This document shows positions 1 through 4,655 of a DNA stretch of 8,571 bases, one piece after another (position 1 is the first letter of the stretch; each line of letters opens with the position of its first letter). The notes beneath the pieces were generated by a model. That model saw nothing but the letters and a program-made list of their open reading frames with translations, was not told where the DNA came from and ran no database searches. The stretch lies in the IMG/VR virus record IMGVR_UViG_2571042263_000006. The stretch is one strand, 5' to 3'. The translations under genes and the position numbers were made by a program. This stretch comes from a virus. Its lineage: Duplodnaviria; Heunggongvirae; Uroviricota; Caudoviricetes.

Positions 1-38
1 TGTGCCCCCATCGCGCTGGTGAAGAAAACAAGCTCAGA

Positions 39-258
39 TTTTTTGTAAAGAATCTGTCACGCTAAAAGATGTCGAACAAAAAACAACCTTCTTCATCATC
101 TTTTTTACATCAAAATAATTAAAAACAATCACTTATGCACATGATGATGATGACGATAAAATCAAAAAAATGCGCTTCTTTCCGCGCCGACCCGCCCCGT
201 GTTCAGGCCCACCCCACCAGGAGGACCCGCAAAAAAGGCGGCTGGTGCCGCCTTGTTG
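39..258. repeat. Copy A of a ~220-bp diverged direct repeat (conserved non-coding block plus terminator hairpin); partner at 2579-2797
   Basis: By-eye alignment with 2579-2797 shares TTTTTTGTAAA, AACAAAAAACAACC, ACTTAT, an (RTG)4-5 triplet run, ATAAAATCAAAAAAATGCGC, CCGCCCCGTG, CCACCCCACCAGGAG and a 6-bp-stem hairpin. Identity over the core is roughly three quarters (my estimate, not computed). Confidence 0.75.
231..252 (-). terminator. Rho-independent terminator downstream of the protease/capsid gene
   Basis: Plus strand reads AAAAAA-GGCGGC-tggt-GCCGCC; on the minus strand this is a perfect 6-bp GC stem with 4-nt loop followed by TTTTTT, starting 7 nt after the stop codon at 259-261. Confidence 0.8.
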
Positions 259-2148
259 TCATAGTGAATCGGTACCGCCTGATTTGACCATACCGCGATA
301 ATCCAGAGCTGCCACACCTGCATCAATACGGACTTTCCAGGCCACGCCGTCAACGATAAAACCTTCCTGCTGTTCAAGGTAAGGTTCGTCATTGCCATCA
401 AGATAAGCCACCTCGATTGTGTCCGTTCCCTGTGCGGAAAGCATGTACCATTGTTTTTCGCTGATATCATCAAGGCGGGGATCGACGATGATATCAAGTA
501 GCTTGTGATACGGGTTAAAGATCCCGCTGTTTTTATCAGCCCCGAAAGGTGCGGTTGAGTTAATCATCTGCAACGCGCGATCTTCCAGTGCTGCCGGAAC
601 TAAAAGGAATTTAGGCGCAATATTCAGCACTTCGCCATTTTTGTCCTTCTGTGTGCGCATCAGGTGACGTGCTGCACTAAGTCCCGGTGTTGTCAGTCCT
701 GCTTCAATCAGGTTGCTGTGTTTTTTGTCAAACAGCGCTATTCCGTCAGAAAGTTTTACGTTGCCTGTAAGCACCAGATTAACCAGATTTCCCACCGTTC
801 TTGATGCTGCACGGCCCATAGCCATTGGCACCGTTGATAACTGATCAAGGTCATCATTGATTATCGCCTGGCGGGTAATGCTGAAAATATTCCCGTAAGT
901 AGCCAGCGCGATGGGTTCACCGCGATCGCTGGTGGTGATGTATTTATATTCTGCCCCTTCCGGCACTTTGTTTAACGTTGAGAAGCCATTCAGACCAACG
1001 CGGCGGGCTTCCCGGAAGTTTGAAAGGGAACCTTTTTTCGTCCACTGGCGGAATGTTTCGCCGCTGTGCTCCCAGCCTGCAAGCACTGATTTTTCAGCGC
1101 CACCAGCAAGGATATCGGTAAAATCGCTGCTGCTGTGGGTGAATGCCGCGTTTACTATCTGCGAGCGTGTGCCGTAGCTGCCCGTGCTTATACCACGATG
1201 GGTTAATGATGCCTGTGCCATATCGAAAAGGCTCATCATGGCGTAAGGATTACCGCGTTCGGCCCGTTCGTGACCAAGACGCGCATTAAGCCCCTGACGC
1301 ATGGCATCGCCGGTTATATTGCCGTTATCCGTGTACGCGTAGTAAAGATTTGCGGGGGTGGTTTTGTTTGTTGGCGTTGATTCTTTACCCATAGCGAGTA
1401 AAAGGCGTTCGCGTGCATTCTCAACGCTACATTCTGAATCCGCAAGACAACTTATAGCCAGGTCGTTATATCTTCCGTTGAAGGTGCCAAACAATTCACG
1501 GATGCCGTTAAGTCGTTCCTGTTCGCCACTGCCAGTTTTCTGGCTGATCATGCTTTTAATTTTTTCCGGCATATTTGAAAAATCTCCGATTCGTTTTGAT
1601 TCAATTCGGGCCATTGCTGTAATCGCGGGTATAACCTCATCTGCGAAACCGTTAGCCTTACACTCATTGCCATCCATCCAGGTTTCCGCCTCCATCATGG
1701 AGGTGATTTCCTGTTTGCTCCTGCCCGTTCTTCCGGCATAGGTTTCTGCCATCGTGTCGCCCAGCTTGTCCATCAGATCAGCAAAGCGGCGAACGTCGCC
1801 CGACACTCCGGCAGTAACACCACGGGGGGCATGTATCATCATCATCGCGTTTTCAGGCATAACGATGTGATCTCCACACATGGCAATAAACGACGCCATA
1901 GAAGCCGCCATGCCTTCAATGTGTACGATTTTTTTTGCCGGATGATTTTTCAGAGCGTTATAGATAGCCAGCCCTTCAAAGATGTCGCCACCAGGTGAAT
2001 GGATGCGAAGATGGATTTCAGACGCATTACCACACGCGTTGATCTCGTCAGTAAGTGCCGATGCCTTTACACCGTACCCGCCGATCTCGTCATAAATGCG
2101 CACATGTACAACATCTGCCATAGCCTTAATGGAAAACCATGTTTTCAT
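259..2148 (-). CDS. Fused prohead (ClpP/S14-like) serine protease and major capsid protein, 629 aa
   Basis: N-terminal ~190 aa carries ClpP-type motifs: GMAASMAS (candidate nucleophile Ser83, codon ~1900-1902) and MMIHAP (candidate His106). The C-terminal ~330 aa is consistent with a phage major capsid protein, with a linker or scaffold-like segment between. ATG at 2148 has AGGAG 7 nt upstream and overlaps the upstream stop (ATGA). Family assignment from motif recall only. Confidence 0.85.
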   Translation of the reverse strand: MKTWFSIKAMADVVHVRIYDEIGGYGVKASALTDEINACGNASEIHLRIHSPGGDIFEGLAIYNALKNHPAKKIVHIEGMAASMASFIAMCGDHIVMPENAMMMIHAPRGVTAGVSGDVRRFADLMDKLGDTMAETYAGRTGRSKQEITSMMEAETWMDGNECKANGFADEVIPAITAMARIESKRIGDFSNMPEKIKSMISQKTGSGEQERLNGIRELFGTFNGRYNDLAISCLADSECSVENARERLLLAMGKESTPTNKTTPANLYYAYTDNGNITGDAMRQGLNARLGHERAERGNPYAMMSLFDMAQASLTHRGISTGSYGTRSQIVNAAFTHSSSDFTDILAGGAEKSVLAGWEHSGETFRQWTKKGSLSNFREARRVGLNGFSTLNKVPEGAEYKYITTSDRGEPIALATYGNIFSITRQAIINDDLDQLSTVPMAMGRAASRTVGNLVNLVLTGNVKLSDGIALFDKKHSNLIEAGLTTPGLSAARHLMRTQKDKNGEVLNIAPKFLLVPAALEDRALQMINSTAPFGADKNSGIFNPYHKLLDIIVDPRLDDISEKQWYMLSAQGTDTIEVAYLDGNDEPYLEQQEGFIVDGVAWKVRIDAGVAALDYRGMVKSGGTDSL

Positions 2149-2339
2149 AGCCAGGCTCCTAACGTTGCCCTGTACCAGTATTCAACCGCGCTGCGTGTGA
2201 TTTGTCCTTTCGTGGGCACTGGCATACCCGGGTGATTATCTTTGATGAACTGCTGATAGCGTTCGATCTTCTCCATAGTTCCGGCGTCTATGTGTACCGT
2301 GGCACTTTTATCCGGCTTTCTGGTGTTGTTCTCTGGCAT
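2145..2339 (-). CDS. Small hypothetical protein (64 aa) translationally coupled to the capsid gene
   Basis: Start moved from the ORF-track start (2372) to ATG at 2339, which has GGAGG 7 nt upstream. Stop TGA overlaps the capsid ATG. Function unknown; possibly a small DNA-binding or head-assembly accessory protein. Confidence 0.55.
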   Translation of the reverse strand: MPENNTRKPDKSATVHIDAGTMEKIERYQQFIKDNHPGMPVPTKGQITRSAVEYWYRATLGAWL

Positions 2340-2578
2340 AAATCCGCCTCCGTTTTGATTAACGGGCATCATTATTGATCGATAAAAGTAATAGATAAAT
2401 CATTTTCTACCTGAAAATCAGATTATGTTTTTTCTGATTATTCTCAGAGAGGCAAAGCCATTGACGCATTTTTGCTATTGAAGCAATATTAAGACTCGTC
2501 ATCCTGGCGATAAAAACTCCTTTGTCGTGTAAAAGCGCCTCCGGTAACAGCAATCGGGGGCGTTTTTTTTTGCGCCTG

Positions 2579-2797
2579 TTTTTTTGTAAATGTTTTCGGG
2601 AACGTTCCAGTGATGAACAAAAAACAACCTGATTCGACACTAAAAATTTTTATTCTTCAATATATCAATAACTTATAGTGGTGGTGATGGTGCCATAAAA
2701 ATCAAAAAATGCGCCTTTTTCCGCGCCCCTCCGCCCCGTGGACAGGCCACCCCCACCAGGAGTACCTACAAAAAAGCCGGATTGCTCCGGCTTCTGT
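2579..2797. repeat. Copy B of the ~220-bp diverged direct repeat (partner at 39-258)
   Basis: Same ordered conserved blocks as copy A. Its hairpin stem differs in sequence (GCCGGA/TCCGGC versus GGCGGC/GCCGCC) but is still a perfect 6-bp stem, i.e. compensatory changes. Confidence 0.75.
2770..2791 (-). terminator. Rho-independent terminator downstream of the replication module
   Basis: Plus strand AAAAAA-GCCGGA-ttgc-TCCGGC; on the minus strand a 6-bp stem with 4-nt loop followed by TTTTTT, about 75 nt after the stop of the 2867-3043 ORF. Confidence 0.75.
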
Positions 2798-2866
2798 CAC
2801 TCGTTGCTTAAAACGGTATGTTATCCCCGTACGGATCATCGTTACCCGCCTGTTGTTTTGCCCTGT

Positions 2867-3043
2867 TCAGTGCGTCAGTAGCCTGGCCCTGCTGGCCTTT
2901 TTTACCACCTGGTCGGGATGTTCCTTCGCGTATCCTTCCCCCGCGTGGCGGTCTATCGTTCTGATTGCCACCTTTAAGGCGTGCTCTGTCATGTCTAACG
3001 CTTTATATTTTGGCTCTGTTCTGTCTCTGTGTTTTTGAGTCAT
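2867..3043 (-). CDS. Small basic hypothetical protein (58 aa) immediately after the iteron array
   Basis: The ORF-track version (2867-3175) starts at a GTG inside the iterons with no RBS. ATG at 3043 is preceded by GAGGTGG, which is itself the reverse complement of the first iteron. Lys/Arg-rich. Function unknown. Confidence 0.4.
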   Translation of the reverse strand: MTQKHRDRTEPKYKALDMTEHALKVAIRTIDRHAGEGYAKEHPDQVVKKASRARLLTH

Positions 3044-3045
3044 TT

Positions 3046-3247
3046 GCCCACCTCTACCCACTTTTTTCGCCCACTTTTTACGTTTTCCCACTTCGTCCAA
3101 CGTGGGAAATTTGGGATTTATATCATCTTGTTTCATAAGTATTTTTTTAGTGCCCACTTTTTGGGATATATACACGTGGGAAAGTGGGTAATTTTGTTAA
3201 AATTACGTTAAATTGCCCACCTTTCCCACTTTTAATGCCCACTTTTT
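3046..3247. repeat. Iteron array, candidate origin of replication
   Basis: Eight direct copies of (G/T)CCCAC(C/T)TT with core CCCAC at 3047, 3057, 3070, 3087, 3153, 3216, 3225, 3238, plus three inverted copies (GTGGG at 3102, 3176, 3184). Two iteron clusters flank an AT-rich spacer (3110-3150) and sit immediately 3' of the replication gene, overlapping its stop codon. Confidence 0.65.
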
Positions 3248-4655
3248 ACAGTGGTCCTACATCATCACCGTCAATGTAGATCACGTCGTCTTTTTCCAGT
3301 TTGGCTAACCATCGTTTAAGGTGTTTTGTGTCATACCCCAGCTTTTTCATATCGTCACGTAACAGCGGGATCGTGCACTTGTCGCCGTGCTGTGTGCGTG
3401 AACGTATGCACCCCCATAGCGCGGTATGGTTTTCCGTCTTGTTCCCTGCCTCCTCGATGCGCTCCAGTTCAACGGGAGGGCGCGGCTTATCCACCACCAC
3501 CAGCGACGTGATTAACTCCCCGTCAGCGTCGGTAAAAAGCTCCACCACCCGCAAATCATAGGCAGCCTCTTTGAGTTCCTCCGCGTCCTTCATTTTGGTG
3601 CATGAGATAACCAGCGCTTCGCTTCCTGCGTCCTCCCTGCGTATCCGGTATTCAGCATCCAGCGAAGCACGAAATGCACTGGAACCGCGCGCGCCTTTCG
3701 TCTCATCCTTGCCGGAATGGTGAACCACCAGCACCGTGGCCCCTGTGCGTCGTTTCAGTTCGTCACAACCACGGATAAACGCCCCCATATCACGGGAATC
3801 ATTTTCATCATTCCCACCAAAGCAACGCGCCAGCGTATCCAGAATAATCATGCGTACAGGTTTACCCGTTTCCCGCTCCACCTGACGGGCAGCGATAACC
3901 ATTTCATCAATATCAAGCGGGGCAGCCGGAAAGATGGGACGGTTTACCAGATACAGATTTTTCACCTGCTCACCGTGCACAACCTCCCAGGCTTTTACAC
4001 GACGCGGAACGCCGATACCGCCTTCACCAACCACATAGAGAACAGCGCCATGCGCCACCCTGCGGCCTCCCCACTGGCGGCCCGTGGAAACGTGACACGC
4101 CCACGATCCGGCAAGGAATGATTTATAGGAACCGCTCGCCCCGTATATGCTGCAAAGCGACGATGCCGGAATAATCCCCTTTACCACGTAATCAAGCTGT
4201 GTGTCGTATCCGGTAGATCCAACGCTCATCGGTAGCGTGGTTTTTCGCTGGGGGATTTTTTTCATGACCAGGCTTTCCCCGCGTTCCCATGCCTCCCTAA
4301 GCCGTGGAAGCTGGTCGCTCCATTCCTCCAGCAATTCGAAATTTTCAGAAAGTAGCCGCGCCTCCTGGACTCCGGCGATCGCCAGTTTCGTGGCGATGGT
4401 TAACAGCTGCGGCTCTTCAATATTTCCGGCGCGTATCACCGTCGCCCTGTATCGCCCATCATCAACAATCTGGAGGTTATCCAGTTCGCTTAACTGATAA
4501 CGCCCCAGATAAACGGGAGGGACTGGATCTCCTGCTTTTTTTGCCTGTGCAATGATGTAATGCTCTGCGAATGAATGAGCATCAATACCCGCAAAAATAA
4601 TCGCATCGGTGTATTTATCTTTCGGTAATCGTTTTACGTTCGGTGCCAGTTTCAT
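3246..4655 (-). CDS. Replication initiator: RecA-fold P-loop ATPase / helicase (RepA/DnaB-like, AAA_25-type) with N-terminal domain of unknown function and probable C-terminal origin-binding domain, 469 aa
   Basis: Walker A GASGSYKS (res 172-179), Walker B RMIILD (res 268-273), VVHHSGKD (res 310-317). AGGAG 6 nt upstream of ATG at 4655. Start overlaps the upstream stop (ATGA). Iterons lie directly downstream. Confidence 0.85.
   Translation of the reverse strand: MKLAPNVKRLPKDKYTDAIIFAGIDAHSFAEHYIIAQAKKAGDPVPPVYLGRYQLSELDNLQIVDDGRYRATVIRAGNIEEPQLLTIATKLAIAGVQEARLLSENFELLEEWSDQLPRLREAWERGESLVMKKIPQRKTTLPMSVGSTGYDTQLDYVVKGIIPASSLCSIYGASGSYKSFLAGSWACHVSTGRQWGGRRVAHGAVLYVVGEGGIGVPRRVKAWEVVHGEQVKNLYLVNRPIFPAAPLDIDEMVIAARQVERETGKPVRMIILDTLARCFGGNDENDSRDMGAFIRGCDELKRRTGATVLVVHHSGKDETKGARGSSAFRASLDAEYRIRREDAGSEALVISCTKMKDAEELKEAAYDLRVVELFTDADGELITSLVVVDKPRPPVELERIEEAGNKTENHTALWGCIRSRTQHGDKCTIPLLRDDMKKLGYDTKHLKRWLAKLEKDDVIYIDGDDVGPL

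Follow-up and report, generated by a model that had tools for sequence, protein, structure and literature searches.

The window, by which we mean the whole stretch of 8,571 nucleotides (nt) analysed here (IMG/VR record IMGVR_UViG_2571042263_000006), carries a capsid module enclosed by two similar sequence copies, and the question this locus raises is what kind of element these copies are. Judged by its gene content, the window is the minus strand of a 9.56-kb satellite of Escherichia coli belonging to the phage-inducible chromosomal island (PICI) type. A preliminary description had taken the copies for terminator or regulatory repeats. Aligned with phage DNA, they are instead two lambda-type cos sites in direct orientation, each with a predicted cosQ, cosN and cosB, and the hairpin makes up only a minor part of them. 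The best explanation, to which we assign a probability of about 0.72, is that these sites, called cos A and cos B here, are each a near copy of a different packaging-specificity class of lambdoid prophages of the Shiga toxin (Stx) type and flank the island's own capsid module. Sites, binding elements and nick positions were assigned from sequence and spacing throughout.

The copies that bracket the capsid module, copy A at 39-254 and copy B at 2579-2793, are about 79% identical and about 180-200 nt each. The longest ungapped pair found in the repeat search covers 99 nt (156-254 versus 2695-2793) with 79% identity and a spacing of 2539, and further pairs in register lie 3' of it (126-169/2666-2709 and 74-94/2615-2635). 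With MAFFT, the similarity reaches a common TTTACAAAAAA, at 39-49 in copy A and 2579-2590 in copy B. A pattern made from the 45-nt core has exactly two matches in the window, 179-223 and 2718-2762, where none is expected (200 shuffles). Since both are located on the same strand (minus), the copies are direct repeats. Copy A begins 5 nt past the stop codon of the capsid gene, and some 240 nt separate the end of copy B from the small open reading frame (ORF) that follows it; between the two copies lie only this ORF of 64 amino acids (2339-2145) and the ClpP/capsid fusion of 629 amino acids (2148-259), both on the minus strand. The earlier statement that a two-gene capsid module lies between two repeat copies was thus confirmed by repeat search, alignment and ORF positions.

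The alignment of copy A to lambda is direct: the lambda junction GGGTCCT ... ACG/GGGCGGCGACCT CGCGGG, with the slash at the nick, corresponds to GGGTCCT ... ACG GGGCGGGTCGG CGCGGA. On the minus strand, cos A is therefore read as a cosQ GGGTCCT (222-228) aligning with the GGGTCCT upstream of lambda cosN, a cosN ACG/GGGCGG-GTCGG-CGCGG (182-200) aligning with the lambda cohesive-end junction ACG/GGGCGGCGACCT-CGCGG, and a cosB of class A (39-181), which is collinear with the class A phage cos. Its putative sub-sites are an R3-like element TCATCATCATCATG (140-153), an IHF-like site TAAGTGATTGTTT (123-135), an inverted R2-like element GATGATGAAG (91-100) and a conserved GGTTGTTTTTTGTTCGACATCTTT (65-88). 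For cos B, on the same strand, the cosQ position (2761-2767) holds the variant allele AGGTACT in place of GGGTCCT, and the predicted cosN is ACG/GGGCGG-AGGGG-CGCGG (2721-2739). The class B cosB (2579-2720), collinear with the class B phage cos, contains an R3-like GGCACCATCACCACCAC (2678-2694), a perfect match to the IHF consensus, TAAGTTATTGATA (2663-2675), an R2-like AGTGTCGAATC (2631-2641) and a conserved GGTTGTTTTTTGTTCATCACTGG (2607-2629).

Between the two copies the left half of cosN, GGGCGG, is conserved, the centre is variable (GTCGG or AGGGG) and the CG flanks are kept; a conserved left half with a variable centre and right half has also been described for lambda-like phages (PMC4669245). 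By alignment, both centres are one or two bases short of the 12-nt lambda overhang region. The predicted nick falls between 198 and 197 in cos A and between 2737 and 2736 in cos B. At a distance from it of bp 45-58 in cos A and 43-59 in cos B comes the R3-like element, close to the positions of R3 in lambda (bp 50-65) and N15 (bp 48-60) (PMC9026076), followed by the IHF consensus at bp 62-75 and the inverted R2-like element at bp 96-107. The phage record LR595868 begins at CCACGGGGCGG, 3-5 nt from the predicted nick on its upstream side, the one hint at a staggered terminase cut that would give cohesive ends.

In lambdoid phages, cos is located between the lysis genes and terS. Homologues of the island cos sites occupy this very position, between the lysis gene Rz and terS, in O157 prophages, VT1-Sakai, Stx2a phages, 1720a-02, CP-1639 and mEp phages, and likewise in the loci L002, L012, L013, L004, L005 and L078 and in 68 IMG/VR contigs. 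The O157:H7 prophage order is Rz, a copy A-like element, a small-terminase gene of the DUF1441 type, terL, portal and ClpP/major capsid protein (MCP) fusion, and the head genes of class A and class B helper prophages are both arranged as terS(DUF1441)-terL-portal-ClpP/MCP. The copy A element was recovered by blastn from 928 of the 5,426 E. coli genomes searched.

Two classes of phage can be told apart at these sites. The nearest relatives of cos A are the cos sites of VT1-Sakai and Stx2a phages (86.5% identity, E=3e-50), those of cos B belong to 1720a-02 and CP-1639 (91%, E=5e-59), and over cosB alone cos B is 82-88% identical to class B phages. Each island site is collinear with its own phage class over cosQ-cosN-cosB and the matching ends where the phage terS begins: in cos A about 35 nt before terS, in cos B at the ribosome-binding site of terS. 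The TerS proteins of the two classes are near-identical over the C-terminal ~90 residues (residues 67-158 contain six differences, all within 67-91) and diverge over the N-terminal 66 residues, which align with the winged helix-turn-helix (wHTH) DNA-binding domain of lambda Nu1. The ClpP/MCP proteins of both phage groups are 99.8% identical. We recovered 80 IMG/VR contigs via TerS, and in all 68 that could be classified the N-terminal class of TerS agreed with the class of cosB (38/38 for A with A and 30/30 for B with B), without exception. A comparable pairing of TerS and cosB is seen in the specificity modules of lambda and 21 (PMC4669245).

The larger gene of the module between the sites (259-2148, minus strand) encodes a fusion of a ClpP-like prohead protease and a major capsid protein (Pfam CLP_protease 3.7e-33, Phage_capsid_4 8.2e-55; PHROG 133), which is 55% identical to the fusion protein of the helper prophages. 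Across four island copies its ratio of nonsynonymous to synonymous substitutions (dN/dS) is about 0.1, indicating purifying selection. A block made up of cos B, small ORF, ClpP/MCP and cos A was found with at least 80% coverage in 143 of 5,426 complete E. coli genomes, including O157:H7, O111, O145 and O103, and in at least three unrelated island backbones: at cspD-clpS with RepA (L001), at tRNA-Pro/yejM with RepA and with a PerC gene in place of ssb upstream (L009), and within terL of a lambdoid prophage, there accompanied by a primase (L010, L011). Comparing related islands at the repeat boundaries, as the preliminary description had proposed, showed that the match of L009 and L010 to window 1-2900 starts where cos B has its left edge (query base 109/110), while other islands have in common with the window only ssb and the cos up to the cosN/cosB boundary (query bases 209-219). 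In a divergent lineage (L015) a small ORF and ClpP/MCP gene are likewise bracketed by two different cos sites. Because of this spread over genomes and backbones, the junctions at cos edges and the low dN/dS, the capsid module is a real, mobile and selected unit with the cos sites as its edges.

The smaller gene of the module (2145-2339, minus strand) has a stop codon that overlaps the start of the capsid gene (ATGA) and belongs to PHROG 4934, which has no annotated function; it has no Pfam match. Homologous small ORFs (35% identity) are located ahead of the ClpP/MCP gene in L014 (5236-5448) and L015 (8885-9091). An ORF of 64-70 amino acids always precedes and overlaps the ClpP/MCP gene, and by eye it resembles ribbon-helix-helix proteins. 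A single-sequence AlphaFold2 (AF2) model of the 64-residue protein consists of two helices at low confidence (pLDDT 65). A relation of the small ORF to the gpW-like prophage protein was considered as well, but the two have no similarity.

Cos homology and position, class pairing, mosaic junctions and purifying selection are what the explanation is built on, and from these we infer cleavage at the sites, use of two kinds of helper and a capsid function of the module. Induction of a helper would lead to excision of the island and its replication as a concatemer. The TerS of the helper would then bind the matching cosB (R3-like element, IHF site and inverted R2-like element), TerL would nick cosN, and packaging would proceed toward the capsid-gene side. 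Neither an Rpp nor a TerS of the island's own would be needed, since the cosB sequences mimic those of the phages; no homologue of either was found in the island by PHROG, Pfam and sequence comparison. With one cos per class, helpers of either class could package the island, and the small ORF together with the protease/capsid fusion would be the island's own head-shell module, selected and travelling with the flanking cos sites. Five units of the 9.56-kb island (47.8 kb) come close to a helper genome of 45-47 kb. We propose only tentatively, as a possibility that falls somewhat short of even odds, that the paired sites act as a dual-specificity signal, in which cos A recruits the class A and cos B the class B terminase and the helper range is roughly doubled without a specificity protein of the satellite.

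Several observations weigh against this interpretation. The cosN centres of cos A and cos B are unlike; a molecule cut at one site and then at the other would carry mismatched ends. Neighbouring DNA of related prophages is linked, and linkage alone could yield the pairing of TerS with cosB. Strain MS6198 contains no resident prophage of either cos class, and the two places at which blastn finds copy A in it are the island's own. In the PICI EcCICFT073 deletion of cos2 raised transfer (PMC6092414), so that a second cos is not necessarily beneficial. Finally, helpers in E. coli may handle a cos B with AGGTACT differently or poorly, because all sampled E. coli-type phage cos sites (70/70) carry GGGTCCT and none has AGGTACT. 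For lambda-like phages, termination has been reported to require cosQ, cosN and I2, not to be cosB-specific and to tolerate mismatched ends (PMC4669245); thus either cos could end a packaging run.

Of the four cassettes read, three carry the allele AGGTACT at cos B. The 61-nt left half of cos B in its AGGTACT version has counterparts with at least 95% identity in about 105 E. coli genomes. Rahnella prophages arranged as Rz-cos-TerS-TerL have this allele natively, and it also occurs in other islands. The contigs were scanned with the pattern CACGGGGCGGN{3,7}CGCGGAAA, which is short and GC-rich, and among the matches listed most were unrelated high-GC genomes; seven Enterobacterales loci were used. 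A cos B that is defective in cosQ, and would initiate but not terminate packaging, was also considered; this idea is weakened by the native allele in Rahnella and is now speculation only. More speculative than the dual-specificity signal is that the allele tunes which of the sites serves termination, so that concatemers are cut in register.

These data can be read in other ways. The mosaic junctions might mean that the repeats are chiefly substrates for homologous recombination, by which the capsid cassette is swapped or deleted, with packaging being secondary or confined to one site. The junctions indeed fall at the edges of cos sub-sites (query base 109/110 and 209-219), the upstream cos of the UPEC129 island is a chimera in which the hairpin and flank of the B locus are joined to a class A cosB, EcCICFT073 has the hairpin and entirely lacks the ~190-bp cos, and phage ASU11 is a hybrid of A and B. 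However, two copies of 79% identity would recombine poorly inside a single island, 143 genomes stably keep both cos sites, and L015 repeats the arrangement with other cos classes, which points to selection and not to a transient intermediate. We regard this alternative as unlikely; the earlier suggestion of an exchangeable cassette is partly supported by the spread over genomes and backbones and by the cos-edge junctions, while exchange between the two copies is made difficult by their divergence. Somewhat less probable still is that packaging is driven by cos A alone, located next to the 3' end of the island, where relatives carry a terS/rpp-like gene, with cos B being a relic or decoy or acting as a negative modulator. 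The non-canonical cosQ and its frequency among E. coli genomes would fit, as would the result of the cos2 deletion. It would also fit that some relatives have a gene of the DUF1441 TerS-like or Rpp-like kind inserted ahead of the terminal 93-residue ORF, and that the cos followed by this gene is the downstream one. Yet the high identity of its cosB to class B phages, the perfect IHF consensus and the R-like motifs would not be expected of a decaying relic, and in the Rahnella prophages, which are bona fide, AGGTACT is native.

A regulatory role, as originally proposed, would make the repeats terminator-containing boundaries that divide the late region into independently regulated transcription units. 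Each copy opens with a hairpin that is a credible intrinsic terminator, with a GC-rich stem of 8 bp followed by T6: hairpin A (AAGGCGGC-ACCA-GCCGCC-T6, 231-254, minus strand) lies 5 nt past the capsid stop codon and abuts cosQ, and hairpin B (AAGCCGGA-GCAA-TCCGGC-T6, 2770-2793, minus strand) closes the replication/ssb operon and abuts cos B (RNAfold, -15.1 and -15.8 kcal/mol). The stems differ by compensatory changes in the MAFFT alignment (GGCGGC/GCCGCC versus GCCGGA/TCCGGC), and a hairpin precedes every island cos examined, whereas phages have only a weak AT-rich palindrome there. In UPEC129 the upstream cos is likewise preceded by hairpin B, and EcCICFT073 has the hairpin but not this cos. 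The hairpins upstream of each cosQ thus probably end the preceding replication and capsid operons, and this is compatible with the idea of separate late units. But the hairpin accounts for 24 of about 200 repeated bases and the remainder is collinear with phage cosQ-cosN-cosB, the supposed second terminator is the right half of cosN with the neighbouring spacer and is conserved in lambda too, and a promoter scan found nothing in the repeat. Such a role may hold alongside the cos sites without explaining the repeat, and as an explanation of the repeat we consider it distinctly unlikely, at a level between the recombination and the relic hypotheses. Least of all do we favour a structured RNA (an antitermination or put-like element, an attenuator or an sRNA) or a short leader peptide, which we hold to be very improbable. 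The core is GC-rich with hairpins, TCATCATCATCAT and CACCATCACCACCAC resemble runs of His/Ser/Thr codons, and there is a weak ctRNA-like match nearby; but the two copies share no start or stop codon in the frames of the codon runs, both sequences are better read as TerS sites of the R3 type, lying as far from cosN as expected (PMC9026076), and scanning the window against Rfam at E<=1 gave only two sub-threshold matches at chance level. Two near copies of phage cos sites thus remain our preferred explanation of the repeats.

A promoter-terminator unit of the Q/qut type and a late promoter of the P2/P4 type (TGT-N12-ACA) were likewise considered for the repeats and rejected, as neither gave a consistent motif in both copies and the promoter scan was empty in the repeat. 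Between cos B and the small ORF the terminator scan revealed a strong hairpin followed by T9, reading as a terminator on the plus (antisense) strand (2531-2577, -24.9 kcal/mol on the plus and -11.4 on the minus strand). It is kept in all four cassette copies and has a weak match to ctRNA_p42d (E=0.095, under the gathering score). This hairpin may halt antisense transcription or work bidirectionally.

The window is 100% identical to a segment of the E. coli MS6198 chromosome and to about 20 other strains. The complete island comprises 9,558 bp between direct attachment (att) repeats and is inserted between yljB/cspD and clpS (L001); the window starts one base before the ATG of the 93-residue ORF and ends at the integrase start codon, so that both att sites fall outside. 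In order, the genes and elements are integrase (8571-7333, minus strand), AlpA (6913-6704, minus strand; Pfam Phage_AlpA 2.9e-16), an Icd-like protein and small ORFs, DUF4222, a RepA-type AAA_25 helicase (4655-3246, minus strand; Pfam 7.7e-44), iterons, an ssb remnant and repeat B, followed by the small ORF, ClpP/MCP, repeat A, the 93-residue ORF, about 620 bp of non-coding DNA and attR. The AAAAGTGGGC iterons (3057-3250) lie directly downstream of RepA as direct repeats spaced 83-85 nt plus an inverted pair (3171-3234), and this cluster is likely the replication origin of the island. Integrase and AlpA at one end, unidirectional genes, an own replication protein with iterons and a specific att-flanked site are all present, and the organisation is the same as in Gram-negative PICIs (PMC6092414, PMC10111431). 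A P4-like satellite was considered and rejected, since none of the capsid-size or late-regulator genes sid, psu and delta is named in the record annotation or among the eight ORFs scanned. At 2808-3136 (L001 19436-19764) two adjoining pseudogene fragments are annotated, a hypothetical protein and the C-terminus of ssb; related islands have an intact ssb, thus the MS6198-type island has lost it.

A further set of late genes had been predicted below position 1. In the extended sequence this place is taken by the 93-residue ORF, the non-coding stretch and attR; genes for a portal, terminase or adaptor are absent, and so is a third repeat copy. The ORF (L001 22572-22853) begins at the base following window position 1, belongs to PHROG 1561, which has no annotated function, and has no Pfam match. 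As the last gene it is conserved in every island examined (MS6198, UPEC129, CFT073, L009, L014 and L015), and directly upstream of it there is invariably either a cos or a terS-like gene. The non-coding DNA that separates this ORF from attR contains two copies of TCTGAATGGT(G/C)ATAAT(C/G)ACCAC (L001 22912-22936 and 23080-23104), 168 nt apart and each with a palindrome; they may be binding sites, for instance for integrase arms or a regulator.

In L010 (1-13600) and L011 (1-13700) the cassette islands lie inside terL of a class A-type lambdoid prophage, which is split into two pseudogene halves, in agreement with the published helper-embedded configuration of PICIs (HE-PICI; PMC10111431). L014 (1-12650), at tRNA-Ile, is apparently a composite of two satellites, with one island seemingly inside the ClpP/MCP gene of the other, and fits a reported case of a PICI within a PICI (PMC10111431).

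Pathogenic E. coli commonly carry satellites of this family, for which Stx-type prophages are the likely helpers. If each cos answers its own terminase class, the helper range of an island could be read from the cos classes in a genome, and the spread of the island and its interference with Stx phages would be readable in the same way. For annotation, terminator-bearing repeats beside satellite capsid genes should be compared with cos sites before they are labelled regulatory.

The arrangement of the sites agrees with the cosB/TerS modules of lambda, 21 and N15 (PMC4669245, PMC9026076), which share cosQ, cosN and then R3-IHF-R2 at similar spacing; specificity would likewise sit in cosB and the N-terminal wHTH of TerS, with the C-terminus of TerS in common. 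Unlike in those phages, the specificities here are derived from sequence pairing alone and the TerS is of the DUF1441 type. Satellites that carry the cos of their helper and rely on its terminase have been described, namely the helper-embedded PICI 11capE, with a cos region of 258 bp that is 90% identical to that of its helper, and the staphylococcal islands SaPIbov5 and SaPIbov4, with two putative cos sites reported for SaPIbov4 (PMC5052747, PMC6092414, PMC10111431). None of these has been described with two cos sites matched to two TerS classes of helpers, and the SaPIs, as elements of Gram-positive bacteria, have cos sequences unrelated to those here. Capsid-forming PICIs (cf-PICIs; bioRxiv 10.1101/2022.09.08.507074) also encode a major capsid protein and a protease, but they provide for the whole head and for packaging themselves (terS, terL, portal, connectors) and the helper supplies nothing but tails, whereas the island here has only the protease/capsid fusion.

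The closest system is EcCICFT073, in which both cos sites are functional and whose authors asked why some PICIs have two (PMC6092414, PMC6739421); dual specificity, if true, would be a concrete answer to this question. Both islands belong to one family with the order int, alpA, icd-like, DUF4222, replication gene, (ssb), small ORF, capsid gene(s), cos and 93-residue ORF, and both have more than one lambda-type cos with cosQ and cosN. In EcCICFT073, however, the two sites share an identical lambda-type cosN (GGGCGGCGACCT), are inverted around rpp (located in CFT073), have no phage cosB and depend on the island protein Rpp, and its capsid gene is lambda E-like with a decoration protein instead of a ClpP/MCP fusion. 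The MS6198-type island has direct repeats around the capsid module, different cosN centres, a complete phage cosB for each class and no rpp or terS-like gene; an rpp downstream of a cosB-less cos, the mark of the Rpp-dependent PICI subgroup, is thus absent. The UPEC129 island, which carries a different capsid module, has three cos sites (L003 9027-9190, 11469-11640 and 12415-12300), one of class A upstream of the capsid genes and two of lambda type inverted around a terS/rpp-like gene. EcCICFT073 (L217 35529-35700 and 36339-36290) has only the inverted pair, the upstream cos being absent through a clean indel of ~190 bp after the shared hairpin. The island type, two cos sites in a PICI (EcCICFT073), helper-embedded insertion and capsid genes in PICIs are thus already known; new here are direct cos repeats around a capsid module, each a full copy of the cos of a different helper class and without rpp, which constitute a variant of the EcCICFT073 double cos.

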